A DNA stretch of 64,000 nucleotides. It comes from an uncultured Bacteroidales bacterium (lineage in GTDB: Bacteria > Bacteroidota > Bacteroidia > Bacteroidales > Bacteroidaceae). Under the pieces are notes generated by a model. It worked only from the letters and a program-made list of their open reading frames with translations, ran no database searches and had not been told where the DNA came from. Within the stretch, counting starts at the first letter, position 1. Each line of letters begins with the position of its first letter. The stretch spans positions 1,439-65,438 of the forward strand of contig CACZSQ010000073.1 of NCBI GenBank assembly GCA_902783885.1. The letters run 5' to 3'. The translations under genes and the position numbers were made by a program. Below are positions 1 to 62,780 of the stretch, in pieces.

Positions 1-2523
1 GGTTGCATTAGTCAGTGCATTGACGATAGCATCAAGGTCTGTCTGAGACATGGCCACGCTTTGATCAACGGCCTTGGCAGCTCTGAGTGCTGCAATTGCT
101 TCAACATTGTTGTATGGAGCATACTCACCTTCGTCAAAACCAAGAACCTTGTCATTAGTTGCATCGATAGCAGCGTTCAGAGCTGTATAGTCATCTGTTG
201 TGACATCGCCTGCAGTCAGTCTAAAGTTGTCAGCCTTGATAAAGCTGGCATCACTGCCATCCTGACTCTTCGTATTGCTGGCCTTGATGACAACATCATC
301 AGCATCTGCAAGCGTGAACACTACGTGCACCGTATTGCCCACTGTCTTGTCACCAGTAACGGTTATAGAATTGGTAGTTTCGTTGGCGGCAAGAACCAGA
401 GACTCACCATTGAAACCTGCGAGGAGAGCGCTCAAGGTATAAGTGCCTGCAGGCAGGTTCTTGATGGTCTGAGAAACATTGTTTTCAGCAGTACCGCCCC
501 AAGAGTTAAAGAGGTAGCTGCCATCCACACCAGAGGTGGTGTATGTAACATTGCTATTAGGGCATACTTTAGTGTCATAGCGGCTTTCAGCACTCCATCC
601 TGTCATGTCTCCTGTCTCGAAGCTAGGGTTGATGATAGCGGAAGTGTAATCAGTAGCAGATGCAGCAGCCAAAGCAGCTATCTCGGCAGCCTGATACTCT
701 GCGTAAATGTCGTCTGCTGTAGTCTCATTGGTATAGGTTCCGCTGTTATATTTTGCGCGAATGCCTGCAGCAGCTGTTGTTGCCGTCCATCCTTCAACCT
801 TTGTGATGGCTGCATCGAGAGCTGTATATACGCTCTTACTTTCATTAGCGGCTATCAGAGCTCCATTCAAAGCATTGTAATTATCAAGAGTCTTGCTGCC
901 AATGAAGGTGCTCTTGGCTGTGGCTAAAGCGCTCTTGATGGTGGCATTATAGACAGCATCATCAAGAGCTTCAACGTTAGCGATGATGGTATTAGCGTCA
1001 GCCTCTGACACGATTACATCACCGATGCGATACACGAGGTAATTGTCAATCCACAACTTGGCACCATTACCAGAACCTGCAGTAGAGGTGGTGAAGCCGA
1101 CATTGAAGTTGATATCAGCAGTCTTGGCCACATCGAACTCAAAGGCTTGAGCAATCCATTCGCCCGTAGCTGCGCTGTTGAGACTGGAGAAAACGAATGC
1201 ATTGGTTGTGCCATAGAAGTCGCCTGCAGCGCCGCTCACACCCGTGTAGTTGCTTGCTATACCCGTATTGGTGTGTTGATTGATGACTTCATAGTAAAGC
1301 AGATAACGACCAGAAGGGAGTTCATTTATTGTCTGCTGATAGCGGGCTTGGTCTCCCCAACCTGCAGAGAGGTGTAATGCGGCGCCATCGCTTTCACCGA
1401 GCATGTCAGCTGCAGGAGGTGTGGTAGAGTTTGTACTCCATCCATTGGCAGGCATTGCAGTACCATATTCAGAGGTGGTACCCTGAGCTGCAGTATTGTT
1501 GAACTTTGAGTACTGAGTCCATCCTGTGACATCATAGAGATAACCATGATCACCAGTGTTGGCACTCATATCCTTCGTGTTATCAGGATTGGAAGTAGCA
1601 GTAGAGAGGGTGCCACTATAAATGGTGTTGCCCTCGCCGTCAAGAGTGTTGTTAGGTGTTGTATCAAAATTTCCGTTTGCCAAAGCAACAGGAGTTGCTC
1701 CGCTCAAAGCGGTTGTAATTGCTGAGCTAAGAGCATCACTTGCATCGTTGCACTCGGCAGAGGTGGTTGCCGCATCAAGCACTCCCTGTGCTGTCGTAAT
1801 AGCAGTACCTAGGGTTGCATCACTCAGTACACTGTTCAAGGCCGTGGCCTTCTTGATATATCCGCCAAGTTTTGTTCGGGCAGCAGCAAGATTGGGATCT
1901 GTCCAAGTGATAGTTATGTCATCATAGAATACGGCAGGGGCACCACTTCCTGTTTTATTGTTTCCTTGTACGCCAATTTGTATCTTACCCGTAGTTTCTT
2001 CCGTAAGAGTAAATGAAACACTCTCGGTAGTCCACGTTGATGATGTGAACGTTGTGCTGGAAACCAGGTATTCTTTACTAGCAGTTACAAAACCAAAACG
2101 GGAAGTACCGTAATTATTGGTTTCAGAGCTAAGATAGTGGTCAACAGTAAGAGTATAATAACCTGCAGGCAAAGTAATATTACCACTTTGGATCTTGACA
2201 TCATCCGCCCATCCAGCTATAATGCCAAGGGTATTGCCAGAAACCGTTGAACCGTCCTTCTTGGTGCTGGGAGTAGTGGAATTTGCCACCTTCACTCCGC
2301 CACCATAAGCGGTCACAGCAATTGTGGTGTAACTGCCACTACTAGTCTTAGTCCATCCGCTAGAGGAGTAGTCTTTCATTGTCTTGGCGGCTACATTAGA
2401 AGTTTCTGCTGTACAGTCGTCAAAACCGGCATTTGTCAAATACGTAGACGTTACGTCAGTTTGCGCCCACGTGGCGACGGAGCATAGGAATGCGCCAATC
2501 GCGAAAAGTAGTTTTCTTTTCAT
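1..2523 (-). CDS. Secreted surface repeat protein, first 841 codons only (3' end lies beyond the window start)
   Basis: Missing from the ORF track because its stop is off-window. I scanned plus-strand triplets 1-3 ... 2521-2523 and found no TTA/CTA/TCA, so the minus frame is open. ATG at 2523-2521 gives MKRKLLFAIGAFLCSVATWAQ (signal peptide). Interior NPSFETGDMTGWS and QTIKNLPAGTYTL motifs match modules in the 3087..6791 and 7287..10727 products. Confidence 0.75.
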   Translation of the reverse strand, partial: MKRKLLFAIGAFLCSVATWAQTDVTSTYLTNAGFDDCTAETSNVAAKTMKDYSSSGWTKTSSGSYTTIAVTAYGGGVKVANSTTPSTKKDGSTVSGNTLGIIAGWADDVKIQSGNITLPAGYYTLTVDHYLSSETNNYGTSRFGFVTASKEYLVSSTTFTSSTWTTESVSFTLTEETTGKIQIGVQGNNKTGSGAPAVFYDDITITWTDPNLAAARTKLGGYIKKATALNSVLSDATLGTAITTAQGVLDAATTSAECNDASDALSSAITTALSGATPVALANGNFDTTPNNTLDGEGNTIYSGTLSTATSNPDNTKDMSANTGDHGYLYDVTGWTQYSKFNNTAAQGTTSEYGTAMPANGWSTNSTTPPAADMLGESDGAALHLSAGWGDQARYQQTINELPSGRYLLYYEVINQHTNTGIASNYTGVSGAAGDFYGTTNAFVFSSLNSAATGEWIAQAFEFDVAKTADINFNVGFTTSTAGSGNGAKLWIDNYLVYRIGDVIVSEADANTIIANVEALDDAVYNATIKSALATAKSTFIGSKTLDNYNALNGALIAANESKSVYTALDAAITKVEGWTATTAAAGIRAKYNSGTYTNETTADDIYAEYQAAEIAALAAASATDYTSAIINPSFETGDMTGWSAESRYDTKVCPNSNVTYTTSGVDGSYLFNSWGGTAENNVSQTIKNLPAGTYTLSALLAGFNGESLVLAANETTNSITVTGDKTVGNTVHVVFTLADADDVVIKASNTKSQDGSDASFIKADNFRLTAGDVTTDDYTALNAAIDATNDKVLGFDEGEYAPYNNVEAIAALRAAKAVDQSVAMSQTDLDAIVNALTNAT

Positions 2524-2577
2524 AGATTAACAGAATTAAATGAGTTATTTAGTTTGTAGTTTATGCAAAAAATCGTA

Positions 2578-2585
2578 CAAAAATA
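2578..2585 (-). promoter_or_regulatory. Bacteroidota -7 promoter motif (TAttTTTG on minus strand)
   Basis: Plus-strand caaaaata, 55 nt upstream of the ATG at 2523. Matches the TAnnTTTG consensus known for Bacteroides/Prevotella sigma-A promoters. Confidence 0.4.
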
Positions 2586-2744
2586 CTCATTAAGTGTGAG
2601 TTGGACAACAAAAAAGCAAAAAAAATGCACCTTCTCCTACCTTTTTGCCCTCGACACCAAACATTGCCCGCACTCGGGGATACGGAAAGGAACTTAAATC
2701 CAACATAAATCAAAACTTAAATGATTTTATGATCATATGACCTG

Positions 2745-2931
2745 CCTACATACACTGGCGACGTATTGGGTTGTGCATCAGGTGATTAAGTCTCAAACAG
2801 TGGTTATTTAGGGTACACTCAGGGTACACTGAGGTTACACGGGGAATGATACTTGAGTGTAGCCTGAGTGTACCCTAAATCGGTATTTAATCAACAGAGA
2901 ATCACCCGACTAGATGTCGAATGTATGTAGG
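2745..2931. repeat. Long imperfect palindrome (~187 bp) with a perfect 18-bp inner stem
   Basis: atttagggtacactcagg (2806-2823) is the exact reverse complement of cctgagtgtaccctaaat (2863-2880). Outer arms cctacataca (2745-2754) / tgtatgtagg (2922-2931) and ggtgatt / aatcacc extend the symmetry. The inner part is a tandem gggtacactca / gggtacactga word. Confidence 0.7.
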
Positions 2932-2982
2932 CTGTTCGCATTGCCATAAATTTCTTCAGTTCATGAACGAGCGGTCTTGTGC

Positions 2983-3070
2983 GCTGAAGATGCAGATCTT
3001 ATGGCCTGAAGATCTAGGTCTTCATCGCTTAAGACCTGCATCTTATGGCCGTAAGACCTAGGTCTTCATA
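2983..3070. repeat. Tandem array of 4 x 22-bp hairpin-forming units (gaaga-N-tctt family)
   Basis: Units are gctgaagatgcagatcttatgg, cctgaagatctaggtcttcatc, gcttaagacctgcatcttatgg and ccgtaagacctaggtcttcata. aagacctaggtctt is a perfect palindrome. The array lies 17 bp beyond the 3' end of the GH53 gene. The same family recurs at 46527-46702. Confidence 0.75.
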
Positions 3071-3086
3071 GTATTTCCTGGCAATA

Positions 3087-6000
3087 CTATCTTACAATCA
3101 GTTTCTTGCCGTTAACGATGTTGATGCCTTTCTGCAACTGCTGCAGCCGCTGACCGGCGAGATTGTAAACAGAGCCCCCAAGCCCACTGAAGGGCTGTGT
3201 AAGGTCTTTGTCCGTTGTCCTTGGTCCATCCTCAATGTCTGTGATGCCCACGGGGAGTATGCCCGCAGCAGCATCGCCGCTGACCTCACGCACGCTGGCA
3301 GGACCATAGCCCGTCAGCGTGAAGTCGTCGAACGTACACCATACATCTCCCTCGTTATAGACCATGACGCCGATGGCGAGCGTGCCGTCGGTCACCTTGG
3401 TGGTCACCTCGTAGCGATGGGCATTGCCGGGCAGGGCGTCAGCAGCCTCCACGAGTACATTGTCGTTGCCGGCAAAGACAACAGTCGTCTGAGCCCTGTT
3501 GGTATATGCGGTTACACCCAGCGTATAGGTGCCGTTGGGCAGGCCGGTAAGCGTTTGCTCCACGCGGTACGCCTGCGGCCAAGAATCCCACAGGTTCAGG
3601 TAGGCACTGCCGTGGTCGGACATGGCGCTCACGCCATCCCCCCAGCTGCCTGCAGCCTCGAAGGTGTCCATGTCGCCGTTCACATTCTCCCAGCCCGTAG
3701 TGCCGTCCTCGAAGTCGGGATTCACGATATATACGGTATAATCCATGGGGTTCTCGTCCGATGCCTCGCCTGCCGGCAAGCGCAGGTCGTGGACGGCAGC
3801 CTCAATCTGGTTCATGGCCGTCTGCATCTGCTCGCTGTTCTCAAAGCTCTCTTCGGCCAGTTTCTTCTCCACCTCTGCGTAGAGGGTTTCTGCTCTCTGG
3901 TAAGCATCGGGGGCACTGCTGGTGGCATAAGTCTCAAGACACTGCTTCAGATAATCCTTCAGCTCCACGAGCTGGTCGAAGAGATTGAGCGTAGCCTGAC
4001 CTTTGCTCATGGCGTCCTTGAGTCCCTGGATCACCGCCTCCACCTCTTGCGTGGAACTCTCTACAGCCTCGAGTGTCGGCGTTGCCGTCTTGGTGATGTA
4101 GTCGTCCAGCTGGTTCTGGTCGAACTCCCAGTAGGAATACTTCTCCTCGTTGGCCGTATTGATGGTAGCCTCCAGCTTGTCGTAGGCGGCCACATTGTCG
4201 TTGCATGCTCCCAGCGCATCCAGGAAAGCCTGCACGTAGGTCATGAGCGTCTCGTCCAGTGCAGCATTCTTCAGGTTCTCCAGCGCCTGCTCATAGGCCG
4301 CCACGAGGGTAGCCTGACAGCGCGCGCCGTCGAAGCTGGGCGCCTGTTCGATGCTCTTCTGCACCCAGGCGGCGTAGGCATCCTCGCCGGCACCGAAGTA
4401 GAGCAGACGGACGTTGTCCATCGCGCCCCAGAGGGCTCCTGTGAGCTCGCCGTAGTAACCAAGCTGCAGGGTGCCGTCGGTGACGAGTGTGGTCATCGTG
4501 TAGTCCTGGCCATACTGAGTATCGCCGATTTTACCGTTGTTGACAGGTGTCTTCACATCGCCTGCGAAGACATAGCCGCCCTCCGCATCGGCGAAGGCAG
4601 CGATGGTCACCTCATACACGCCGTTGGGCAGACCCGTGATGGTCTGCGAGGCCATGGGGCCTGTGAAAGCGTCGCCGTGCCAGAGGTTCAGATAGCACTG
4701 GCCCGTGAAGCTGGTGCCGTCAACGACGTCGGCCCATCCCTTGCTGACGGTGTCGTAATGCTCGAAGGTGCTGACCCCGCCGTTCACCCAGCCGTCGATG
4801 CCGTCTTCGAAGCCGGGGTTCTGGATGTAGCGCGTCATGTCGATGGGGTTCTCGGGTGTCACGTTCTCCTGATAGTATTCGCTGAAGCGCTGCAGCAGGG
4901 CGCTGATAGCCTCGGACAGCTGTTCGTAGCTCAGGCTCAGGTTATGGTAGGCATTGTAGGCATCATCGAGGTCGCTGATGCCTATCTCCTCGGCCTCCTG
5001 GATGAGCGCCAGCAGTTCCTGCGAGCGGTCGTAGATGCGGAGCTGGTACTCGTAGGTACGGTAGTCTTCCTCCAGCACCACCATCCACTCGTTCTGGTCG
5101 AACTCCGATGCGGCGGCATAGATGATACCCGTTCCGGTAGCTATGCCCTCGCCGGTTTCCTCATCCGCGTGGTAAGTGTCAACGTAGTTGGGATCGAGCG
5201 CCACATAGTAGTCCTCGAAGTCGCCGCTGTGCTTCACAGTGGCGTTTGTCTCGGCGCCATAGATGCGAAAGGCTTTGTTCTCAGTAGGCTCCACACAGAA
5301 ATAGTGGTCCTCGCGCGTACGTGCGCCGTCGGTATATAGGTGGTATGTCAGCGTGCTTGGGTCAGCCTCCTTGTCATATTCCAGGAAAGCATAGTACCAC
5401 TGCCCCTTCTGGGGGTGATAGTTGCTGATTTCGTAGATATATACTTCGTCGCCCTGGGTCTCGCCTGTGGGGTTGAAGGAGAGGGGGATGCCGCGCTCCG
5501 AGAGCGAGACATGTGTTCCCCAGTCGTTGCCATAGCTGTAGAACAGGTTGGTGGCCTTGTGCAGGAGATAGACGACCTGGTTGGAGCGGAAGTCCGACAC
5601 GGGGCCTCTGTAGGTGGGTACCGTGCGGTCGCCTATCACATCGCCGCCGCTGCCTACGAAAGCCTTCAGCTCGGTCAGGGCAGCCATGGCGCGATGCGAC
5701 GTGTTGTCCCACAAGCCGCGGTTCAGCCAGTAGGACAGCACGCCGTCTTCGGGGCCGGTGCCGTTCTCTTCGGGGAACCAGTAGTAGAGGCCGTTGACAT
5801 TGGCGTGCTTCTTCAGTTCTGCCACGAGGTCGCGGATGAACGCGGCCTGGCCCGCCGGCGTAATAGGCCATGTGGAAGAGAAATCGTATTTCGTGCCGGC
5901 GTCGGCTCCGGGCTGATGCTGGTAGTAATAGCCCGTCTCCACAATCTGCACCTTCTTGTCGGGGAAGTCGGTGGCCAGCATATTCAGCGACTGCGAGAGC

Positions 6001-6791
6001 ACATCCAGCGAGTTGTGCCAGAAGGGATAGTACGAAAGGCCGATGACGTCGTAGTCCACGGCTGCCAGCTTGTTATAGAACAGCTTCAGGATGCTGGGCT
6101 GGCCGGAGCGCTCGCAATGGATCATGACCTTGGCCTGCGGGCACACCTCACGGCAGGCACGCGAAGCCTGGTTCAGGAGATTCACGAAGCGCGTCCAGTT
6201 GGCCTCGGGAGAGTTGGAGAGGCAACGGTTGGCGCTCGACGTATGGTCGGCGCTCCACAGCATACCATAGCTAATCTCATTACCCGTCTGGATGAAGTCG
6301 GGTGCCGCGCCCTCGTCCACGAGTCGCTGCAGGCACTCCTTAGTATAATCGTACACGCGCGCGAGGAGCTGTGTCTCGGTCAGGTCGGCCCACGCCGCAG
6401 GTATCCACTGGTTCGAGGGGTCTGCCCAGCTGTCGGTGTACTGGATATCCAGCAGGACGGCGAAGCCCTCAGCCTTCAGGCGCTTGCAGAAGCGCACCAC
6501 ATAATCCAGGTCCTGGCACACCTGCACATCGGCGTTGCCGTCGTTATCCACCCCCTTGGGGTTCACGAACAGTCGCACGCGGGCAGCATTCCAGCCCACC
6601 TCGACGCCTCCCAAGTACTTCACCACATCGCTGATGCGCCGGTTCTGGAGGTCGTAGTAATCCACTCCATGATCCTCGTAGCTCTGTAACAAGGATATGT
6701 CACCTCCGACGTACATCTCCTGTGCGCGGAGCGACAGCCCCTGCCCACCTACCATAGCGAGCAGGAACCATACAAATAACAATTTTTTCAT
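3087..6791 (-). CDS. GH53 endo-beta-1,4-galactanase with two CBM-like modules and a T9SS-type C-terminal sorting tail
   Basis: GGDISLLQSYEDHGVDYYD, YTDSWADPSNQWIPAAW, GNEISYGMLW and VQIVETGYYY fit the GH53 (clan GH-A) pattern with two catalytic Glu. Two later modules start NPGFEDGIDGW and NPDFEDGTTGW. The protein ends VYNLAGQRLQQLQKGINIVNGKKLIVR. I moved the start to MKKLLFVWFLLAMVGG (ATG at 6791), downstream of the promoter motif. Confidence 0.85.
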   Translation of the reverse strand: MKKLLFVWFLLAMVGGQGLSLRAQEMYVGGDISLLQSYEDHGVDYYDLQNRRISDVVKYLGGVEVGWNAARVRLFVNPKGVDNDGNADVQVCQDLDYVVRFCKRLKAEGFAVLLDIQYTDSWADPSNQWIPAAWADLTETQLLARVYDYTKECLQRLVDEGAAPDFIQTGNEISYGMLWSADHTSSANRCLSNSPEANWTRFVNLLNQASRACREVCPQAKVMIHCERSGQPSILKLFYNKLAAVDYDVIGLSYYPFWHNSLDVLSQSLNMLATDFPDKKVQIVETGYYYQHQPGADAGTKYDFSSTWPITPAGQAAFIRDLVAELKKHANVNGLYYWFPEENGTGPEDGVLSYWLNRGLWDNTSHRAMAALTELKAFVGSGGDVIGDRTVPTYRGPVSDFRSNQVVYLLHKATNLFYSYGNDWGTHVSLSERGIPLSFNPTGETQGDEVYIYEISNYHPQKGQWYYAFLEYDKEADPSTLTYHLYTDGARTREDHYFCVEPTENKAFRIYGAETNATVKHSGDFEDYYVALDPNYVDTYHADEETGEGIATGTGIIYAAASEFDQNEWMVVLEEDYRTYEYQLRIYDRSQELLALIQEAEEIGISDLDDAYNAYHNLSLSYEQLSEAISALLQRFSEYYQENVTPENPIDMTRYIQNPGFEDGIDGWVNGGVSTFEHYDTVSKGWADVVDGTSFTGQCYLNLWHGDAFTGPMASQTITGLPNGVYEVTIAAFADAEGGYVFAGDVKTPVNNGKIGDTQYGQDYTMTTLVTDGTLQLGYYGELTGALWGAMDNVRLLYFGAGEDAYAAWVQKSIEQAPSFDGARCQATLVAAYEQALENLKNAALDETLMTYVQAFLDALGACNDNVAAYDKLEATINTANEEKYSYWEFDQNQLDDYITKTATPTLEAVESSTQEVEAVIQGLKDAMSKGQATLNLFDQLVELKDYLKQCLETYATSSAPDAYQRAETLYAEVEKKLAEESFENSEQMQTAMNQIEAAVHDLRLPAGEASDENPMDYTVYIVNPDFEDGTTGWENVNGDMDTFEAAGSWGDGVSAMSDHGSAYLNLWDSWPQAYRVEQTLTGLPNGTYTLGVTAYTNRAQTTVVFAGNDNVLVEAADALPGNAHRYEVTTKVTDGTLAIGVMVYNEGDVWCTFDDFTLTGYGPASVREVSGDAAAGILPVGITDIEDGPRTTDKDLTQPFSGLGGSVYNLAGQRLQQLQKGINIVNGKKLIVR

Positions 6792-6815
6792 GTTCAAAAA
6801 ACCATATTTATGCTG

Positions 6816-6823
6816 CAAAGGTA
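6816..6823 (-). promoter_or_regulatory. -7 promoter motif (TAccTTTG on minus strand)
   Basis: Plus-strand caaaggta, 25 nt upstream of the ATG at 6791. Confidence 0.5.
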
Positions 6824-6870
6824 ACGCCTTTCCCCCACCCGACCAAATTTTCATTCCATTTTTCACAAAC

Positions 6871-6906
6871 GAAGCCCTGCGGACAACCTCGTGTCCGCAG
6901 GGCTTC
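6871..6906 (-). terminator. Perfect 15-bp stem hairpin ending the 7287..10727 / small-ORF transcription unit
   Basis: gaagccctgcggaca - acctcg - tgtccgcagggcttc. It sits 51 nt downstream of the small ORF stop. The trailing T-run is weak (gtttgtg on the minus strand). Confidence 0.6.
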
Positions 6907-6956
6907 TATTACCAATAGCCAATAGCCAAAAGCTAACAGCTAATTGCCCAAATCGC

Positions 6957-7160
6957 TTACTTACTCCAGTCGTCGTTCCAGACGTTATAGTCCGAACGGC
7001 TGCCGCGGTCGCCTTTAACGTCACTGGTCATGCCACCACCGGAGTGACCACCATAGGTTACATTAACGTTTCCTACCATGTTAGCAGAGACATCAAGGAC
7101 ATGCTCCTGAGCGCTCAGCTGCATGATCTCTGTGCTGGGGATGATATATGTCTTTTTCAT
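6957..7160 (-). CDS. Small conserved hypothetical protein (67 aa), paralogue of 40403..40579
   Basis: MKKTYIIPSTEIMQLSAQ...GGHSGGGMTSDVKGDRGSRSDYNVWNDDWSK. It shares the N-terminus, a Gly-rich centre, a VK.DR motif and a W.DD.W end with the 58-aa ORF downstream of the GH95 gene. No signal peptide. Confidence 0.55.
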   Translation of the reverse strand: MKKTYIIPSTEIMQLSAQEHVLDVSANMVGNVNVTYGGHSGGGMTSDVKGDRGSRSDYNVWNDDWSK

Positions 7161-7286
7161 AATCGTATTACCTTAATATTATATTATTCTTTCACACGAA
7201 TGTCCACGAATGGGTACACTAATAATCATCAATATTTTTGGTCATTACATGTATCTAATTCATGGCCATTTGTGTGAAAACTAATT

Positions 7287-10200
7287 TTATTTCACGAGCA
7301 CTTTCTTGCCATTGACAATATTGATGCCCTTCTGCAGCTTCTGCAGACGCTGGCCAGCCAGATTGAAGATAGTAGCATCATTGTCATTGTTGACATCAGC
7401 GCTAATACCCTCGATAGCGGTAGCTACGCCGTCGATGAACAAAGCAGCCTTCACATTACCACCAACCTTCTTCTTGAAGTATGCGCGGAAAGGCTTAGCA
7501 GTATCGTTGATGCCCTCTGACTGGAAGACTTTCTGGACATTATCCTTCGTAGCGAGGAAGAAGTCACCTGCAGCAAATGTGGTAAGCTCATAGACACCGA
7601 CATAGTCAAAGTTAGTACCCTCGGCGATAGTCGTTGCAGGAGCCTCAGGAGCCTCGATGGTCACACCTTCAATCACCTTTTTTGTTGCAGCGGAAGTAGC
7701 CTTAACCAAAACAGGAACGTTAGCTGTGATAGCACCAGAGCCGACTGTGGTGAAGGTAAGTTCAATAGAGTTCGTATTTGCGCTGTTCTCACTGTAGCTA
7801 TAAACCTCAGCACCAGAGCCAAAGACAGCCTGAACCTGAACAGCGGTGAGGTCGAAGGGCAGAACAACAGTGTTATAACCCTCCTTGATACCGCGCTGTA
7901 AGGTCACGGTAGCCAGTTCACCATCATTGGAAGCGATAGTGGAAGCCATATTGTCGTCATCGGAGAGCGTAATCTTCGTGGTCTTGTCCTCATCGGAAAG
8001 GAGTTCAGCATCTGCGAGAGAAACCCAATTCCACTTCAAATCGGAACTTACATTGATAGTCAATGTAACATCACCAGCCTCGCTGACGGTGAAGGGCAGG
8101 AAACGCCACTGCCAACCAGCACCCTTGTTGTCCTCGGTATTAGCACCAGCGCTCTTGCGGAAAGTGTCACTGTCAGACCAGCTTGCAACACCAGCAGTGG
8201 TAATACCACGTGTGTTGTTACCTGCAGTCGGTAAAGTAACGGTGTTGGCTGTAGCAGATGAGGCTATCGTACCATTACTGTCAACAGAGCCACGGGCAGC
8301 AAGCTTCAGTACATAGTTACCTGCGGGCAGATTGTTGGCAACCTTCGTATAGGTTACAGACCAGTTACTGCTATACCATCCACGTGCTGATTGCTCATAA
8401 TAAGTACGGGTGGTGTTGCTCCAGTGTTCGGAGTTGAGAGTCTGAGGATCAACAGGTGTGTCTCCATGCTCAGCATCAAGAGCTGTTCCTGTCCATGTGC
8501 TAAAGTCACCAATCTTTGAAGTGAGAGAGTACTGGTACTCAGTAGCTACCTTATTATACTGAGCCACGTTCAGGTTCTGAACAGCCGTAACGGCCTCAGC
8601 AGCTGTGGTGGGAGCAGCAACATCGAGGTCTGAGCCCCAGAGTGTGATGGTCTCCTGCTTGTATGCTACGTAAGCATTATAGGATGGAGCAGCAGCATTG
8701 AATGTCTGAAGAGCAGTTTGCAGCGCGTTAATCTTAGCGGTGTATGTAGCCTTGAGGTTGGAACCTGCTGGAGTGTCTGCAATAGCGGCATTAAGTGCTG
8801 TAAGTTCAGTTCCTGTCACATTGGCATTAGTGGTCTTTGCCGTGTTTGCATCATTGACAAGTGCTGTCCATTGATCCTCATAAACAGAATAGTCAGGAGC
8901 GCCATAGTACTTCAGCGTGAAGTCGCGGAAGATGGTCCATTTGTCGGTCTGGGTGTCTTGGTTGTCGATACCAATCTCAACATCGCCAGCGGTCTCAATA
9001 AGGAACTTCAGAGCGACCTTACCATTGCCATTATCGAAATAGGTTTTGGCATCAGCCATGGTATTCACAACTGTGCTCGCTACACCAGGAATCAAAATCT
9101 TATCCTCGCCAGCATAGAAATAAGTGCTGAAGTCACCTTGTCCGCCACGGTGGAAACCGGTTACGCCGAACTCCCATGTACCAGGGGTGAGAGCAAGCGT
9201 CTGATAGAACTTGAAGTTAGCATTATAAAACTCTGTCTCGCCGTAGTTGGTGGTAGGACCATTACCTGATTGCTTCTCTGTTGTCCAGAATTCTGTGTTC
9301 TGGCTAACAGATGCATTGTCAACCATGACGGCAGTTACGTCAATACCTGCTGCGGGAACTGTCACGTTGGGCAGTTCATCAAGGAATGCAGCGCGAAGGG
9401 TGGGGATAGCAGCGTCTATAGCAGCTGTTGTGGTAGCAGCATTGACTGCCGCATCGGCTGAAGATGTGTCAGTTGAAGGAGCAATAGCCAGAGCGGCTGT
9501 CTTAATGCTGTTGTAACGAGCATAGCTTGCAATAATAGCGGCATCAGCGTTAGCGCTGACAGCATTGTTGATAGCAGTGATAGCTGCGCTATATTCATCA
9601 CCAGTCTCGTACTCTTTGTTATTTGCCGTGATTGCAGCAGAGATGTTTGCGTAAACTGCTGCGGGGAGCTGAGATTCATAAGCTTGAGCAGCTGAGACAG
9701 CAGCAGCAAGAGCATTCACATATTCAGTCAAATCAATAGGACCATAGTATTGAATCTGAATATTATCCCAAATACACCAGAGAGCCGTATTGTTGTCAAG
9801 GTGAGTGCCTACTTTGAGATCACCACCAGCATAGGTGGTCTTTGCGCTCCAGTTTGTCATATATGAGCCAGCTGTAAAAGAAGTAGAAGCAGCACTCATA
9901 CTGCCTTCATCACCAGTTTTTGCAGGGAATGTCACCTTTGCATCACCTACATAAAAATAAGGAAGGTCTGTATTATTGCTGCCATCCTGGCGATAGAAAG
10001 CCTGACCACGAACAGCATAATAGCCTTTGGGGGCATCAGCAACAGTCTGAGCGAAATCGAAAGCTACATGGAAAGACTCAACACAGAAATTGGTATTGTC
10101 ACCCGCATTGTTTTTGTTTGTTGCGCCAGGGAAAGTCCAAGTCCAAGCTGCATCATAAGCAGGCAACTTATAGCGACCAAACTCAGCATTTTTGAGCAAG

Positions 10201-10727: not shown

Positions 10728-10788
10728 TTGTTTGTTAATTAATAATTAGTTTTTATGATTATTTTCAATGTCTTCGACAAAAACGGCG

Positions 10789-10796
10789 CAAAAGTA
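10789..10796 (-). promoter_or_regulatory. -7 promoter motif (TActTTTG on minus strand)
   Basis: Plus-strand caaaagta, 62 nt upstream of the ATG at 10727. Confidence 0.4.
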
Positions 10797-10894
10797 CAAA
10801 TAAAGTGTGAAATATACAATAAATAATACAAACTTTTTTCAAAAGACACCTATTTAGATAATAAAGAGCAATGAAAAATGAAGAATGAATTAAA

Positions 10895-11008
10895 CCACGA
10901 ATTACACAAATATCACGAATCACATGTCCTATTGATAGGATTCAATTATATCGAATTTCTCAAATTCTTAGCGCGCTCGGCTCGAAGAGACGCTTGACAC
11001 TTCAAGAA
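10895..11008 (+). mobile_element. Degenerate copy of the cacgaatt-word MITE-like element with a nested cgctcggc...cttcaagaa module
   Basis: ccacgaattacacaaatatcacgaatcacatgtcctattgataggattcaattatatcgaatttc aligns with the left half of 14025-14283. Relative to that copy it carries an extra segment, cgctcggctcgaagagacgcttgacacttcaagaa (10974-11008). Confidence 0.55.
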
Positions 11009-11186
11009 AGGCTGCGCGGCTTTCGAGTGAGAGAAAACAATCCACAACAATATCCAACAATTTATTGCAACAATAATCAATAATTAAATTTCTGCGCTCT
11101 CTGCAAGCAAACATTAGCACAATTCGCACAATTCGCCGACAAATACACCAACGGCTAAACCGAAAAACATAACGGTTAATTACACT

Positions 11187-11219
11187 CGCTCGGCCAAAGG
11201 ACGCTTGACACTTCAAGAA
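11187..11219 (+). repeat. Second intergenic copy of the cgctcggc...gacgcttgacacttcaagaa module
   Basis: cgctcggccaaaggacgcttgacacttcaagaa. Compare 10974-11008 and the coding copy at 59587-59621. Confidence 0.7.
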
Positions 11220-11260
11220 TTATGCGAATTAATTTCAGAACAAGGATACACGGTTAATTT

Positions 11261-11344
11261 ATCAAGAATTAGAGAATTGGAGAATATTTCTCAAGATGCA
11301 ATACTCTGTCTTATGAATTGATGAGAATGAATAGAATGTCTTTT
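11261..11344 (+). repeat. 84-bp direct repeat R1, copy a
   Basis: atcaagaattagagaattggagaatatttctcaagatgcaatactctgtcttatgaattgatgagaatgaatagaatgtctttt is identical by eye to 11979-12063. Its first 18 nt recur inverted at about 11370-11388. Confidence 0.8.
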
Positions 11345-11408
11345 GCTTTGCAAAAGCTGGTAAAATCTTTAATTCTCTAATTCTTGATAATTGAAGTTTC
11401 GGATAAAA

Positions 11409-11462
11409 TTCTCCACCACAGATTGCACGGATTACACTGATTCTTGTCCTCTTGATTTCAAA
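11409..11462 (+). repeat. cacagatt-word repeat Y, copy 1
   Basis: ttctccaccacagattgcacggattacactgattcttgtcctcttgatttcaaa. It has the same architecture as the MITE left end (ccac + 3 x 9-bp words + tgtcct.ttgat core). Confidence 0.7.
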
Positions 11463-11556
11463 GTTAGAAAAGGAAAGCAGTCTTCTACAACTGCCAGTGC
11501 TGTTACGCAGTTTGGACTTTTCACACCGTTTTTTTGGCCGTTCGAAAGATTATCTC

Positions 11557-11564
11557 TACCTTTG
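11557..11564 (+). promoter_or_regulatory. -7 promoter motif TAccTTTG
   Basis: 29 nt upstream of the ATG at 11593. Confidence 0.45.
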
Positions 11565-11592
11565 TGGCGGAAAGTCATTAAATGAGCACTTT

Positions 11593-11832
11593 ATGACACA
11601 GACTTATCAAGAAAAGGCGACTGCTTTTAATCCTATGCAACTACAGTTGCTTCGGATGTTCTCTTATGTCAAGACCGAAGAACAGCTCAAGGAAATCAAG
11701 ACTGCCTTATGTGATTTTTTCTTCAAGCGTGTGGAGGAAGGTATGGATAGGCTAACAGAGCAAGGCGAATGGAGTCAAGAGAAGGAGGAGGCCATCCTGA
11801 CAGAACATCTACGAACCCCATACAAATATTGA
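11593..11832 (+). CDS. Small antitoxin-like protein (79 aa)
   Basis: MTQTYQEKATAFNPMQLQLLRMFSYVKTEEQLKEIKTALCDFFFKRVEEGMDRLTEQGEWSQEKEEAILTEHLRTPYKY. It resembles the small helical proteins I recall upstream of PIN-domain toxins in Bacteroidota. Its stop overlaps the next ATG (TGATG). The track start at 11452 lies inside repeat Y, so I used the ATG after the promoter motif. Confidence 0.5.
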   Translation: MTQTYQEKATAFNPMQLQLLRMFSYVKTEEQLKEIKTALCDFFFKRVEEGMDRLTEQGEWSQEKEEAILTEHLRTPYKY

Positions 11833-11969
11833 TGAAAAGAATTGTTCTTGATTTCTCCACCACAGATTACACAGATTACACTGATTCTTGTCCTCTTGAT
11901 TTCAAAAATTCATTCTATATTACACTGATTCAAGTTTCGGATGTAAACAACTTGTTGTCTGTAAGGTAA
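11832..11969 (+). pseudogene. Probable remnant of a PIN-like toxin gene, reduced to MKRIVLD then repeat sequence
   Basis: The ATG overlaps the antitoxin stop. The first 7 codons, MKRIVLD, look like a VapC/PIN N-terminus. From codon 8 onward the sequence is repeat Y copy 2. Confidence 0.3.
11853..11906 (+). repeat. cacagatt-word repeat Y, copy 2
   Basis: ttctccaccacagattacacagattacactgattcttgtcctcttgatttcaaa. Two mismatches to copy 1. Confidence 0.7.
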
Positions 11970-11978
11970 TTTATTGCT

Positions 11979-12063
11979 ATCAAGAATTAGAGAATTGGAG
12001 AATATTTCTCAAGATGCAATACTCTGTCTTATGAATTGATGAGAATGAATAGAATGTCTTTTT
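11979..12063 (+). repeat. 84-bp direct repeat R1, copy b
   Basis: Identical by eye to 11261-11344. Confidence 0.8.
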
Positions 12064-12205
12064 GGATTCGCCTCAACATCGCGATGTTATAAAGATCACT
12101 TCGCCGTATTGTGCGGTGTGCGTTACTTTCGTGTTAAAAAATTATTTTGTTCGGCTGCGTTTTCTCTTTTCACCTTGAATTTTTCCTTATTAACTAATTA
12201 TTCCG

Positions 12206-12213
12206 TACCTTTG
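12206..12213 (+). promoter_or_regulatory. -7 promoter motif TAccTTTG, only 8 nt before the ATG
   Basis: gtacctttgcggcgaaATG. This implies a leaderless or very short-leader transcript. Confidence 0.35.
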
Positions 12214-12220
12214 CGGCGAA

Positions 12221-15488: not shown

Positions 15489-21502
<6,014 letters not shown>

Positions 21503-21536
21503 CGCTAAAAGAGCGGTCGTGGAGACATTTACATCG

Positions 21537-21544
21537 CAAAAATA
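21537..21544 (-). promoter_or_regulatory. -7 promoter motif (TAttTTTG on minus strand)
   Basis: Plus-strand caaaaata, 35 nt upstream of the ATG at 21502. Confidence 0.45.
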
Positions 21545-21758
21545 GCACAAATTCGATGAAAGTGTGTCATATTCGTCGGCAAAATGTATCTTTTTGTAAA
21601 AAAAAAGCTTTTTTGTTTGGCAGTTTCGCGAAAAACCTAGACCTTTGCCGCCGATATGCGGTAAAAAACGCCGATTATCACCAGAACATTATCAATTATT
21701 CACCAAATTCGTCATTGCCTATAGAAAGACATTACTCCAAACCAACTTGTAGAAAGTA

Positions 21759-22371: not shown

Positions 22372-22600
<229 letters not shown>

Positions 22601-31658: not shown

Positions 31659-31724
31659 CGCTTTTGCCATTGGTGGCAAATGCTTTTGCCATTGGTGGTA
31701 AATGCTTTTGCCATTGGTGGAAAA
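31659..31724. repeat. 3 x 22-bp tandem hairpin units
   Basis: cgcttttgccattggtggcaaa, tgcttttgccattggtggtaaa, tgcttttgccattggtggaaaa. tttgcca-ttgg-tggcaaa is a palindrome. The array starts 9 nt after the C10 stop. Confidence 0.85.
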
Positions 31725-46526: not shown

Positions 46527-46702
46527 GTGAAGGATGAATCCTTATGGCGAGAAGATTTAAACCTTATCGGCAGAAGGATTAAACCTTATGGGCAGAGGAT
46601 TTATATCTTACGGTATGAAGATGCGGGTCTTACGGCTTGAAGATATAGGTCTTCAGGCCTGAAGACCTGCATCTTCTGCCATGAAGACCTGCACCTTAGA
46701 AC
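46527..46702. repeat. Tandem array of 8 x ~22-bp hairpin-forming units (gaaga-N-tctt family)
   Basis: gtgaaggatgaatccttatggc, gagaagatttaaaccttatcggc, agaaggattaaaccttatgggc, agaggatttatatcttacggt, atgaagatgcgggtcttacggc, ttgaagatataggtcttcaggc, ctgaagacctgcatcttctgcc, atgaagacctgcaccttagaac. The last unit supplies the stop codon of 46696..47037. Confidence 0.8.
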
Positions 46703-58845: not shown

Positions 58846-58864
58846 TCGCAAAATCGTGTTTTCT

Positions 58865-60604
58865 ATGGTTCAAGACATACAATTACGCGTGCTGCCGCGT
58901 GTTGCAGCCACCGATGCCAGCATTCGTGAGCTGGTGCTTCAGGAACTGGGATCTGGTGCACAAGAGTTACGTGACCTACGGGTGATTCGCCGCAGCATCG
59001 ATGCGCGCCAGCGACAGGTGATGGTGAATCTCACGGTGCGTGCGTGGCTGAACGAGGAGCCCACGGCAGCATTCCCACAGGTGGAGTACCGCGATGTTTC
59101 AGGGTGTCCGCAGGTGATTGTCGTGGGCGCGGGCCCAGGTGGCCTGTTCGCAGCACTGCGCTTGATAGAACTAGGGTTGCGCCCCATCGTCGTTGAACGC
59201 GGCAAGGATGTTCACGCGCGCAAACTCGATTTGGCACGAATTGCCCGCGAGCACAGTGTCAACCCCGAAAGCAACTACAGCTTCGGCGAAGGCGGCGCAG
59301 GAGCCTACTCCGACGGCAAGCTCTACACGCGCTCCAAGAAACGTGGCTCAGTGGAGAAGATCCTGAACGTGTTCTGCCAGCATGGGGCCTCCACCAACAT
59401 CCTCATTGATGCCCACCCCCACATCGGCACCGACCGCCTGCCGCGCGTCATCGAGAACATACGCAACACCATTCTCCGCTGCGGCGGCGAAGTGCATTTC
59501 CAGACCCGCATGACCCGTCTCATCATCGAGGGTAACCGCGTCATCGGCATCGAGGCACAAAGTTCTTTGACCGGCGAAGGACTCTCCGCTCGGCCCAACG
59601 GGACGCTTGACCCTTCAAGAACTATTAACTCTCCGCTCGGCGCTTGCGACGCTTTGCTCTGCGAAGAACTATTAACCTTCACTGGCCCCGTCATCCTCGC
59701 CACAGGCCATTCCGCTCGCGATGTCTATCGCCTGCTGGCCAACAGCGGCATCGAGATTGAAGCCAAAGGCATCGCCGTGGGCGTGCGCCTAGAGCATCCT
59801 GCACAGCTCATCGACCAGATACAGTATCACAGCCGCGAAGGTCGCGGACGCTGGCTTCCGGCAGCGGAATATGCCTATGTACAGCAGTGCGGCGGGCGTG
59901 GTGTCTATAGTTTCTGCATGTGTCCGGGCGGCTTCGTGGTTCCTGCGGCCACAGGTCCCGAGCAGGTCGTCGTCAACGGCATGAGCCCCAGTAACCGAGG
60001 CGGGCGCTGGAGCAACTCTGGCATGGTCGTGGAGATACGCCCCGAGGACCTCATGGAAATAGACAATGGGCAATGGGCCATGGATCATGGAGAGAATCAT
60101 TGTCAGCCATCAGTTGACAATCCTCAATTACAAATGCTCCTCTTTCAGGAACATCTCGAGCATCTCGCCTGGCAGCAGGGCGGGCGCCGGCAGACAGCCC
60201 CCGCACAGCGCATGGCTGACTTCGTGAACGGAAGACTGAGCGCCGACCTGCCCGCGAGCAGCTATGCCCCTGGCCTCGTGGCCTCACCCCTCCACTTTTG
60301 GATGCCCCGCTTCATCAGCGAGCGCCTGCAAGAAGGCTTCCGTGCCTTCGGGCGCAAGAGCCATGGTTTCCTCACCAACGAGGCCACCCTCATCGGTGTG
60401 GAGACGCGCACCTCTTCGCCCGTGAGAATCCTGCGAGATGCTGACACCCTGCACCACATCCGCCTCGAAGGCCTCTACCCCTGCGGCGAGGGAGCCGGCT
60501 ATGCCGGCGGTATCGTCAGTGCCGCGATCGACGGGGAACGCTGTGCCGATGCCGTGGCTCAATCATACCGCCTACAAACATTCGGCATTGTACAGAGATC
60601 CTAG
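58865..60604 (+). CDS. NAD(P)/FAD-dependent oxidoreductase (COG2509-like)
   Basis: VIVVGAGPGGLFAALRL dinucleotide-binding motif, FGEGGAGAYSDGKLYTRSKKRG, ILATGHSARD, GEGAGYAGGIVSAA. Confidence 0.7.
   Translation: MVQDIQLRVLPRVAATDASIRELVLQELGSGAQELRDLRVIRRSIDARQRQVMVNLTVRAWLNEEPTAAFPQVEYRDVSGCPQVIVVGAGPGGLFAALRLIELGLRPIVVERGKDVHARKLDLARIAREHSVNPESNYSFGEGGAGAYSDGKLYTRSKKRGSVEKILNVFCQHGASTNILIDAHPHIGTDRLPRVIENIRNTILRCGGEVHFQTRMTRLIIEGNRVIGIEAQSSLTGEGLSARPNGTLDPSRTINSPLGACDALLCEELLTFTGPVILATGHSARDVYRLLANSGIEIEAKGIAVGVRLEHPAQLIDQIQYHSREGRGRWLPAAEYAYVQQCGGRGVYSFCMCPGGFVVPAATGPEQVVVNGMSPSNRGGRWSNSGMVVEIRPEDLMEIDNGQWAMDHGENHCQPSVDNPQLQMLLFQEHLEHLAWQQGGRRQTAPAQRMADFVNGRLSADLPASSYAPGLVASPLHFWMPRFISERLQEGFRAFGRKSHGFLTNEATLIGVETRTSSPVRILRDADTLHHIRLEGLYPCGEGAGYAGGIVSAAIDGERCADAVAQSYRLQTFGIVQRS
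59561..59677 (+). repeat. Repeat-derived segment in frame inside the oxidoreductase ORF
   Basis: It contains cgctcggcccaacgggacgcttgacccttcaagaa (59587-59621), about 30/35 identical to the intergenic copies at 10974 and 11187. It also has a 13-bp perfect direct repeat, aagaactattaac, at 59617-59629 and 59664-59676. It encodes about SSLTGEGLSARPNGTLDPSRTINSPLGACDALLCEELL. Confidence 0.65.
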
Positions 60605-61175: not shown

Positions 61176-62780
61176 TTAGGTGGTGATGCCGAGTTTTTTT
61201 GCCTTTTCGATGATGAAGGCAAGGGCGGCGTCGTGGTCGTTGGGGATGAGGCCGTCGAGGATGGCGTCCTTGACGGCTGTCTTGAGGGTGCCCACCTCAC
61301 GGGAGGGCGGCAGATGGAAGTGCTCCATGATCTCCTCGCCGCTGACGGGCGGCTGGAAGTTGCGGATACGGTCGCGTTCCTCGAGGTCGATGAGCTTCTG
61401 GCGCACGAGCTTGAAGTTGTCGAGGAAGCGTTGCTTGCGCTGCTCGTTCTTGCTGGTGATGTCCGCCTCGCACAGCAGCATCAGGTCGTCAATGTCGTCG
61501 CCCGCCTCAAACAGCAGGCGTCGCACAGCGCTGTCAGTCACTTCGTCGTCAGCGATGGCGATGGGGCGCATGTGCAGCGACACCAGCTTCTGCACATACT
61601 TCATCCGCTCGTCCATCGGCAGCTTCAGGCGCCGGAAAATCTGCGGCACCATCTTCTCGCCAATATAATTATGGTTATGGAACGTCCAGCCCAGCTGCGG
61701 GTCCCAACGCTTCGACTTCGGTTTCCCGATATCGTGCAGCAGCGCCGCCCAGCGCAGCCAGACAGACTCCTCTTTATCTCCCCTTCCTGACGGGAGGGGT
61801 TGGGTCTGCTGTTTCTTCACGACATTCGTCAGCACCTCAAGCGTGTGCCAGAAGTTGTCTTTGTGGGCGCGGCCGTTGACAGTGTCTATACCCTGGAGAG
61901 CGTAGAGCTCGGGGAAGATGAGTTCCAGGAGGCCGCATTGGAACAACAGCTCAAAGCCTCGTGCGGGGCTGTCAGAAGCCATGATTTTCTGCAGCTCGTC
62001 AATGATGCGCTCGCCGGAGATGATCTTGATGCGCTCGCGGTTGCGGTTGAGCGCCTCGAACGTCTCGGGCTCAATCTCGAAATTCAGCTGCGTGGCAAAG
62101 CGGATGCAGCGCATCATGCGCAGCGGGTCGTCGGAGAAGGTTACGTCGGGGTCCAGTGGTGTCGCTATGAGACGGTCCTGCATGTCCCACACACCGTCGA
62201 AGGGATCTACCAACTCGCCGAAGCGCGCCGTGTTCAGGCAGATGGCCATGGCGTTGATGGTGAAGTCGCGCCGCTGCTGGTCATCCTCCAAGGTGCCGTC
62301 CTCAACAATGGGCTTGCGGGAGTCGTGGCTGTAGCTCTCGCGGCGCGCGCCGACAAACTCCAGCTCGATAGTTGCTTCGCAACGGTCAGAGTCGCTTCGC
62401 GACGGTGAAGGTTGCTTCGCAACGGTGAGTAGTTCCTCACCCTTCTCACCTCTAACCGCACCGCAGGTGCTTTCACCTCTCACCGCGCAGAAGGCGCTTT
62501 CACCAATAAAAGCTTTCACCTGCGCCGTGCCGAAGTTCCTGAAGACGCTCACGTGTGCGCCGCGCCCAAGGCGCCTGGCCACAGCCTTGGCCAGCTCTAT
62601 GCCGCTGCCCACGCACACCACATCGATGTCCTTGGACGGCCGTTCCAGGAACAGGTCGCGGACATAACCGCCCACGACATAACACTCCACGCCCTGTTCA
62701 TCGGCCACCTGCCCAATGAGTTCAAACACAGGGTTTTCGCGAAGCAGAAGAGTCAACTGTTGCCGGTCTAAAAGTCTCAT
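61176..62780 (-). CDS. CCA tRNA nucleotidyltransferase / poly(A) polymerase family protein with an HD domain
   Basis: YVVGGYVRDLFLERPSKDIDVVCVG, FGTA...IELEFVGARRESY, RDFTINAMA, LLHDIGKP (HD). Confidence 0.8.
   Translation of the reverse strand: MRLLDRQQLTLLLRENPVFELIGQVADEQGVECYVVGGYVRDLFLERPSKDIDVVCVGSGIELAKAVARRLGRGAHVSVFRNFGTAQVKAFIGESAFCAVRGESTCGAVRGEKGEELLTVAKQPSPSRSDSDRCEATIELEFVGARRESYSHDSRKPIVEDGTLEDDQQRRDFTINAMAICLNTARFGELVDPFDGVWDMQDRLIATPLDPDVTFSDDPLRMMRCIRFATQLNFEIEPETFEALNRNRERIKIISGERIIDELQKIMASDSPARGFELLFQCGLLELIFPELYALQGIDTVNGRAHKDNFWHTLEVLTNVVKKQQTQPLPSGRGDKEESVWLRWAALLHDIGKPKSKRWDPQLGWTFHNHNYIGEKMVPQIFRRLKLPMDERMKYVQKLVSLHMRPIAIADDEVTDSAVRRLLFEAGDDIDDLMLLCEADITSKNEQRKQRFLDNFKLVRQKLIDLEERDRIRNFQPPVSGEEIMEHFHLPPSREVGTLKTAVKDAILDGLIPNDHDAALAFIIEKAKKLGITT
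62370..62507. repeat. 138-nt in-frame repeat segment inside the CCA-enzyme ORF, built from tandem words in inverted arms
   Basis: gttgcttcgcaacggt occurs twice and agtcgcttcgcgacggt once. These face ttctcacctctaaccgcaccgcaggtgc and tttcacctctcaccgcgcagaaggcgc, which are about 75% reverse-complementary. The segment encodes IGESAFCAVRGESTCGAVRGEKGEELLTVAKQPSPSRSDSDRCEAT, between FGTAQVKAF and IELEFVGARRESY. Confidence 0.7.

Follow-up and report, generated by a model that had tools for sequence, protein, structure and literature searches.

A translated, repeat-built insert in the head domain of a class II tRNA nucleotidyltransferase gene from a rumen member of the Bacteroidaceae

The window analysed here is a 64,000-nucleotide (nt) stretch of DNA from an uncultured Bacteroidales bacterium (contig CACZSQ010000073.1). 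Its minus strand carries, near the end of the stretch, a class II tRNA nucleotidyltransferase gene of the CCA-adding type (cca), in which the part encoding the catalytic head domain contains about 135-138 nt of inserted, translated repeat DNA. The gene was recognised from its open reading frame (ORF) and from Pfam and PDB matches. The extent of the insert was defined by comparison with the empty site, GCTCAGTCTATCGAA, of locus L133; the same site is empty in loci L009, L136 and L137. The features of the gene and its insert are as follows.

61176..62780, minus strand: class II tRNA nucleotidyltransferase gene (CCA-adding type), 534 amino acids, with a C-terminal HD domain
61764..61817, minus strand: second variable loop, in the HD domain, KKQQTQPLPSGRGDKEES, with the hairpin CCCCTCCC-GTCA-GGAAGGGG at 61780-61799
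62364..62513, minus strand: 50-codon loop from strand FGTAQVK to strand LEFVGAR, residues 90-139 (5 codons in relatives)
62370..62507, minus strand: inserted DNA, about 135-138 nt
62371..62429, minus strand: three tandem 20-nt units, coding strand YTSACCGTYGCGAAGCRAC, each with a GCGAAGC-type mini-hairpin (5-bp stem, 3-nt loop)
62424..62441, minus strand: central hairpin GGTGAG-GAACTA-CTCACC, the point where the orientation of the words flips
62432-62450, minus strand: degenerate third 27-nt unit
62451..62504, minus strand: two full 27-nt units, GGTGAAAGC..GGTKAGA, 9 codons each (GESAFCAVR and GESTCGAVR)
62508..62522, minus strand: native flank CAGGTGAAAGCTTTT, containing AGGTGAAAGC and CGCAGGTG

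Three Pfam domains were detected in the 534-residue protein: PF01743 (PolyA_pol head), PF12627 (PolyA_pol RNA-binding) and PF01966 (HD). Motif A (VVGGYVRDLFLERPSKDIDVV, GGYVRD..DID) and motif B (RRDFTINA) could both be read intact in the ORF, and the head domain with these two motifs assigns the predicted protein to the class II tRNA nucleotidyltransferases. Among solved structures, those nearest to it, both in sequence and in fold, are the A-adding and CC-adding enzymes of Aquifex aeolicus and the CCA-adding enzyme of Thermotoga. The best NCBIfam match, TIGR02692 (actinobacterial-type CCA tRNA nucleotidyltransferase), scored 328.8 bits and remained below the cutoff of 438.8 bits; the insert splits the score, and the Bacteroidota type is divergent. 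A addition by enzymes of this class requires a flexible loop, located between motif B and the region of strand 5, which CC-adding enzymes lack. The loop is kept upstream of motif B in the protein studied here (22 residues, ESYSHDSRKPIVEDGTLEDDQQ), where it aligns without gaps to the A-adding enzyme of A. aeolicus. Residues E139 and E141, located on the catalytic sheet, are invariant. The insert-bearing enzyme has presumably retained its enzymatic activity.

The match to PF01743 (E = 1.4e-21) extended over 173 residues (33-205) for a profile of 126 positions, and the surplus corresponded to residues 90-137, between FGTAQVK and IELEFVGAR. A sequence-only reading of this DNA had proposed that the catalytic head is split at this point, and the profile match bore this out. 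The same reading had placed the two flanking motifs 10-15 residues apart in normal members of the family, which was an overestimate: the insert replaces a turn of 3-5 residues, as judged from homologues and from the A. aeolicus enzyme. In a HMMER alignment, the A-adding enzyme of A. aeolicus (1VFG/4WBY) aligned on both sides of the insert, from FGTAHLK to LKLEF, with 3 residues in its place. Modelling of the head domain, which had been suggested as a check, was performed with AlphaFold 2 (AF2). The model was of moderate to mediocre quality (mean predicted local distance difference test score, pLDDT, 69.9) and was used for secondary-structure boundaries only. Strands were predicted at residues 76-80, 85-92 and 136-145, the latter two flanking the loop, and pLDDT values of 24-29 for residues 95-134 indicated disorder. 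In characterised enzymes, a functional beta-turn between strands 3 and 4 positions the 3' end of the primer (PMC7730189). The corresponding residues here, RNFG (81-84), are untouched. The insert is located at the tip of the beta-hairpin of strands 4 and 5 of the head domain, in neither the functional beta-turn nor the flexible loop; it interrupts the catalytic sheet in sequence and hits no described functional element. The loop, predicted to be disordered, sits at a structurally permissive turn.

The insert consists of two sets of repeated words. For the first, Tandem Repeats Finder (TRF) reported a period of 20 nt with 3.0 copies, 82% matches and a score of 83 (units 62371-62390, 62391-62410 and 62411-62429), in agreement with the three direct copies noticed in the sequence-only reading. 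The stem of each unit comprises 5 bp around a 3-nt loop, GTTGC-TTC-GCAAC, and is compensated to GTCGC-TTC-GCGAC in the second copy; the coding-strand form of the hairpin is GTYGC-GAA-GCRAC. An 18-nt word from these units occurred three times in the 64-kb window, in all cases in the insert, against a chance expectation of 0.10 and with none of 100 shuffles reaching three occurrences. The second set of words, whose existence had also been noticed, forms a 27-nt array (2.2 copies at 62446-62504, 84% matches by TRF) with small hairpins in its units, for example GCACC-TGC-GGTGC. The central hairpin separates GGTGAR words on one side from YTCACC words on the other. This 27-nt array keeps the register of the native flank: every unit starts with the junction sequence AGGTGAAAGC, the native flank itself contains another partial copy, GCTTTCACCT, at 62512-62521, and unit 2 of the array holds CACCTGCG, the inverse of CGCAGGTG in the flank.

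The insert is in frame and free of stop codons, and encodes residues 90-137. Because 20 is not divisible by three, the three 20-nt units yield three different peptides. The in-frame peptide repeats that had been claimed for the segment were found in the 27-nt units, as the pair GESAFCAVR/GESTCGAVR. The presence of exactly three 20-nt units (3 x 20 = 60 nt) is accounted for by the persistence, in an essential gene, of in-frame and stop-free versions only.

The two sets of words had further been described as approximate reverse complements that might fold into a long imperfect hairpin. A loose inverted match between them does exist, with 17 of 20 positions matching at its best and with gaps, but 28 of 1000 shuffles equalled it. 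The minimum-energy fold (-58 kcal/mol) is made up of local mini-hairpins, of which the insert holds six, compared with -47.8 kcal/mol for a duplex of the left and right arms, so that the long hairpin is not the preferred fold. On either strand, the insert folded moderately better than its shuffles (z about -3 to -3.5). No Rfam family reached its gathering score in the insert, the best being CRISPR-DR20 with 19.6 bits against 42, and a scan of the insert for promoters and terminators found no such site. A CRISPR array, in which unique spacers set apart repeats of 24-48 nt, was rejected, since the units of 20-nt period are contiguous, without spacers, and the CRISPR-DR20 match is sub-threshold.

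The turn between strands 4 and 5 is a recurrent insertion hot spot. Among the 120 closest homologues (68-100% identity, all from metagenome-assembled genomes of Bacteroidaceae), this turn comprised 5 residues in 87 proteins, 4 in one and 6-50 in the other 32. The 32 long loops had mutually unrelated sequences, rich in hairpins or repeats, with up to 45 extra residues. Among the 93 loci with DNA, 20 different loops reached a length of 10 residues or more, with a maximum of 76, and the five loci labelled human gut all had the short turn. Most long inserts were internally repetitive and folded far better than shuffles. The extreme case was L139 (z = -6.65 for the insert with flanks, -7.4 for the insert alone), in which one arm consists of tandem 24-nt words and the other of their reverse complement. 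The HD-domain loop between LEVLTNVV and LWLRWAALLHDIGKP varies similarly, from 5 to about 90 residues in relatives, and includes tandem repeats of THPQQ and RPTPE. The sequence-only reading had correctly picked out the one insert and had overlooked both the hot spot with its many unrelated inserts and the second such site in the same gene. In the following, the strand 4-5 turn and the HD-domain loop are referred to as sites 1 and 2. The same motif was seen at both sites within one gene in L192, L196 and P0007. The cca gene of L177 has two copies of an 84-nt segment (97.6% identity), one within the HD-domain loop and the other at a third position, which lies upstream of site 1 (913-996).

The window is part of a scaffold from a cattle-rumen metagenome. 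Four additional assemblies, derived from other samples and other studies, contained the same insert, and its presence in five independent assemblies indicates that it is real. The sequence-only reading had taken its absence from CCA enzymes of other families as a point to be checked, and an orthologue alignment confined the 46-residue loop to one species-level cluster, in keeping with that reading. Three insert-bearing lineages differed pairwise at 4.7-6.8% of the nucleotides of the gene, with proportions of synonymous (pS) and non-synonymous (pN) differences of 0.22-0.28 and 0.004-0.015, respectively. The resulting pN/pS of about 0.02-0.05 indicated that the gene is under strong purifying selection while bearing the insert. 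Within the 150-nt loop, no synonymous difference was observed in any pair, against an expectation of 7.7-10 (Poisson P between 4e-5 and 4e-4), and a single non-synonymous change (E to K) was found. The insert is the least variable stretch of the gene. In a three-way comparison, two adjacent tracts (coding nt 226-345 and 347-425), the longest of the gene without any variation, enclose the insert (268-417), the next longest being 49 nt, and the remainder of the gene forms a mosaic like that left by recombination. L002, a fourth lineage that is equally close (93% nucleotide identity), has a different turn that is 30 nt longer, VNRRNGRSTSNELIE, and the slightly more distant L133 and L009 have the empty 5-codon turn. 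The insert is therefore either young relative to its host alleles or kept constant at the nucleotide level. The 20-nt unit was present in three copies in all five assemblies, and a phase-variable contingency repeat was rejected on the basis of this constant copy number.

Upstream of cca, L001 encodes an AlwI-type restriction enzyme and two D12 methyltransferases (1-9700), whereas L130 and L131, which have the same insert, encode a HicA/HicB pair instead (1-2000). This variation in upstream content among strains with the same insert indicates that cca adjoins a variable island.

Three repeat types were identified in other inserts of the gene: an AT-rich type (A), AACGTTTAAACG; a GC-rich type (G), ACCCACCCC..CCCCTCCCGTCAGGGAGGGG; and a type R, GAGTTCTTGAAGGGTCAAGCGTCCCGTTGGGCCGAGCG, flanked by AGTTGAG heptamers. 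Each of the three occupies site 1 or site 2, depending on the genome, and is also present in intergenic DNA and inside unrelated long ORFs. The site-1 insert of L004 and L005 is of the R type. An origin of these two inserts by duplication of the flanking strand codons was rejected, as they are copies of the dispersed R-type element. R-type sequences are also present in the window.

59581-59676, plus strand: in-frame R-type insert, 47 nt x 2 in tandem, contributing 36 extra residues to the neighbouring flavin adenine dinucleotide (FAD)-dependent (DUF8436) gene at 58856-60604
10972-11012 and 11184-11224: two intergenic R-type copies

The insert in the FAD-dependent gene is absent from the orthologue in L129, and another repeat takes its place in L004; the divergence of this repeat relative to its flanks was uninformative, the strains being only 2.1% different there. 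The two intergenic copies lie in a 1.5-kb intergenic mosaic of small repeats (10728-12220), which also contains a perfect 85-nt direct repeat (11260-11344 and 11978-12062), a 54-nt repeat (11409 and 11853) and a 30-nt inverted pair. Head-to-tail arrays built of 22-nt hairpin units were seen in intergenic DNA at 2997-3066, 46529-46697 and 31660-31724, with the family TCTTATGGCCTGAAGACCTAGG at two loci and GCTTTTGCCATTGGTGGAAAAT in 3 copies; their style is like that of the 20-nt units of cca, and they had no Rfam match. The AGTTGAG heptamer, which flanks R-type elements in relatives (e.g., L002 585-641), is repeated 21 times in intergenic DNA at 22372-22515. Two 9-nt tandem arrays were observed, one of 12 copies of ATAGGGCAT at the junction of two large minus-strand ORFs (18004-18113) and one of 6 copies of GGGCGTATA inside the ORF at 18110-21550 (20480-20535). 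The R-type copies and intergenic arrays of the window indicate a genome that is generally prone to build arrays, sometimes in frame in tolerant loops.

Further copies of the cca insert were searched for in about 73 kb of its own genome and in other sequence collections. For the words of the insert, neither the 64-kb window with the 8.8 kb beyond it nor L001 and 1.33 Mb of related loci yielded another copy, and viral contigs, plasmids and phages contained no match. The sequence-only reading had itself proposed that the words should recur elsewhere in the genome, and by this measure the result counts against a dispersed word. A six-frame peptide search matched only the protein itself and was a weak test, since a similar search for the R type missed proteins known to contain its peptides. 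When a 16-nt degenerate word was compared with the GTDB representatives (596 Gb), the matches listed were chance matches in unrelated phyla, the pattern being too short. Three exact matches to the 16-nt hairpin word were seen within 3 kb of Idiomarina seosinensis, an unrelated gammaproteobacterium (L041, NZ_CP085211.1, 3325-6295). These may represent a family resembling repetitive extragenic palindromes (REP) with the GCGAAGC mini-hairpin; the similarity is probably convergent. The core of the 20-nt unit showed a weak resemblance to the R-type core (15/17, AGAGTCGCTTCGCGACG against AGCGTCGCTTCGCGCCG; empirical p about 0.02).

Insertion of repeat DNA into genes was reportedly described in 2000, by Ogata and co-workers, for the Rickettsia palindromic elements (RPE). 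REPs inside genes have been found in clusters encoding 43-82 amino acids, with genes for RNA-handling enzymes among their targets (Di Nocera et al., 2013, PMC3733652). As in these two systems, the insert in cca is hairpin-forming, palindromic repeat DNA that lies in frame and without stops at a tolerated site of a conserved gene of the often essential kind, and it is translated as an extra peptide without destroying the host protein. Unlike RPE and REP, which are multi-copy dispersed families, it had no detectable second copy in the about 73 kb of its genome and 1.33 Mb of related loci that were searched, whereas its sister insert types are multi-copy. REPs with a CGTC or GTAG tag have stems of 8-9 bp, loops of 4-5 nt, an unpaired tag and a CCA-like tail, and are mostly inverted dimers (PMC3733652). 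The insert does not have this structure: it contains 5-bp/3-nt mini-hairpins arranged head-to-tail, and CGTC is present in unit 2 only, inside the stem. Also different from RPE and REP are the host, a rumen member of the Bacteroidaceae, and the many independent occasions on which at least four repeat types have colonised two particular loops of a single gene. With in-frame bacterial MITEs (small transposable elements with inverted repeats; e.g., Nezha), the insert shares its small, non-autonomous nature, its in-frame position in an ORF and its secondary structure. Unlike MITEs, it is built of tandem units and lacks a cognate transposase, a target-site duplication and terminal inverted repeats of 15-30 bp; its longest inverted pair is 11 nt at 82%, and no duplication was found at the two junctions.

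Quasipalindrome or template-switch mutation and hairpin-stimulated replication slippage are general mechanisms, and d(GCGAAGC) is an extra-stable mini-hairpin. Direct and inverted junction copies, a tandem array in phase with the flank and a GCGAAGC per 20-nt unit on the coding strand all resemble products of these mechanisms. The usual events are small corrections or duplications; fixation of a 138-nt block with several units in an essential gene is unusual, and this pathway is a proposed one here. In characterised class II CCA-adding enzymes, which share the family and the head domain and in which known core elements also evolve fast, the variable elements described are the flexible loop (PMC2910056) and the beta-turn (PMC7730189). 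The insert differs in its position in the strand 4-5 turn, for which no function has been described, and no enzyme among the PDB matches had tens of extra residues at this turn (3 in 1VFG). Translated repeat DNA in essential genes is thus already known from other bacteria, and this insert differs in unit architecture.

On balance, we lean towards reading the insert as a passenger, that is, translated in-frame hairpin and tandem-repeat DNA at a recurrent hot spot, which most likely grew in place. No observation suggests a role in the enzyme: disorder is predicted for the loop, the insert is missing from sister lineages and the peptide is a frame-dependent by-product. This passenger would reflect a lineage-wide habit in rumen Prevotella-like Bacteroidaceae, in which short hairpin and tandem repeats gather in intergenic DNA and repeatedly enter a few tolerant loops. 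Template switching seeded at the native GGTGAAAGC would have produced the inverted copies, replication slippage at stable mini-hairpins would have produced the tandem copies, and homologous recombination would have passed the insert among strains. An in-register array together with an inverted copy of the flank is the trace expected from template switching followed by slippage, and spread by recombination would explain a near-identical insert in a gene that differs at a quarter of its synonymous sites around it. Several observations weigh against growth in place and against a purely passive insert. Overall sharing of 8-mers between insert and flank was not significant (p = 0.12), and growth in place is argued for by a single junction 10-mer and the phase in which it lies. 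The stretch without synonymous change has almost the same limits as the insert, with only 8 nt of identical native flank downstream, and such an invariant tract would be expected from nucleotide constraint or from conversion by an unseen master copy just as much as from a recombination sweep. The copy search covered only about 73 kb of this genome, and the protein search was weak. In addition, the AF2 model is of mediocre quality, the protein with the insert is presumed to be active, and the base of the insert lies 3-4 residues before the invariant E139 and E141 on the catalytic sheet, so that some catalytic effect is possible.

Ranked second, and in our view rather unlikely, is integration in frame of one copy of a dispersed mobile palindromic element of RPE, REP-cluster or MITE type, perhaps via microhomology of its terminal GGTGAR words with the target, with other copies elsewhere in the genome. 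Other inserts at both cca sites do belong to dispersed families, the R-type insert of L004 likewise adjoins native flank that resembles its heptamer words, and the resemblance of the 20-nt core to the R-type core points in the same direction; near-identity among diverged strains fits recent insertion or master-copy conversion. The failure to find a second copy in any of the DNA collections listed above argues against such an element, as do the lack of terminal inverted repeats of at least 12 nt and of a target-site duplication and, more weakly, the six-frame search. The zero synonymous changes against 7.7-10 expected, in a tract that coincides with the insert, would also suit a functional nucleic-acid element in the coding sequence, either an mRNA structure that tunes translation or decay of cca or a protein-binding DNA site. 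One compensatory stem change between paralogous units and the folding z-score of about -3 on both strands are consistent with this explanation, which we nevertheless consider improbable: no Rfam family (19.6 against 42 bits) and no promoter- or terminator-like site were found, repeat DNA in these genomes is rich in hairpins generally, and the closest sister lineage (93% nucleotide identity) and most relatives lack the element or have unrelated sequence, so that it is dispensable.

It is more improbable still that the loop is an adaptive part of the protein, such as an extra arm binding tRNA or a partner, or a surface varying under diversifying selection to evade a toxin or phage factor. Its proximity to the beta-turn region, bordered by residues that modulate the affinity for tRNA in other CCA-adding enzymes (PMC7730189), and the presence of two hypervariable loops in many rumen lineages would agree with such a role, but the inserts consist of repeat DNA that is also intergenic or in unrelated genes and whose peptides are by-products of the frame, and the loop is predicted to be disordered and is not conserved in sequence between lineages. 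The data can hardly be accounted for by misassembly, by a pseudogene or by a segment that does not reach the working protein (intron, intein or translational bypass). Metagenome assemblies are prone to misassembly at repeats, but the identical insert was recovered in five independent assemblies from different studies, and an intact ORF of 534 codons under strong purifying selection does not indicate a pseudogene. An intron or intein was rejected, as there was no Rfam intron match and the 46 residues start with AFIG and end with CEAT, without the Cys/Ser...His-Asn ends of inteins.

Beyond passenger DNA grown in place, a more speculative and doubtful interpretation is that an active process writes hairpin and tandem cassettes into a few defined permissive loops of housekeeping genes in rumen Prevotella-like bacteria. 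The two cca loops and the loop of the FAD-dependent protein would then be examples of a targeted in-frame system rather than of random accumulation of junk, and nucleotide identity of the cassettes across diverged strains could be due to repeated site-specific re-insertion, to conversion from a master copy or to a function of the DNA or RNA.

For sequence annotation, such inserts cause proteins to drop below curated family cutoffs (329 against 439 bits in this case). The absence of synonymous change in the insert, with pS of about 0.25 around it, may reflect a sweep, gene conversion or constraint. At the level of the enzyme, tens of residues that are predicted to be disordered are tolerated at one defined turn in the catalytic head of a protein essential for tRNA maturation, and the natural inserts provide a map of permissive sites for enzyme engineering. 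In-frame colonisation of essential genes by repeat DNA, first noted in Rickettsia, now extends to free-living gut Bacteroidota, where it takes place at recurrent hot spots.

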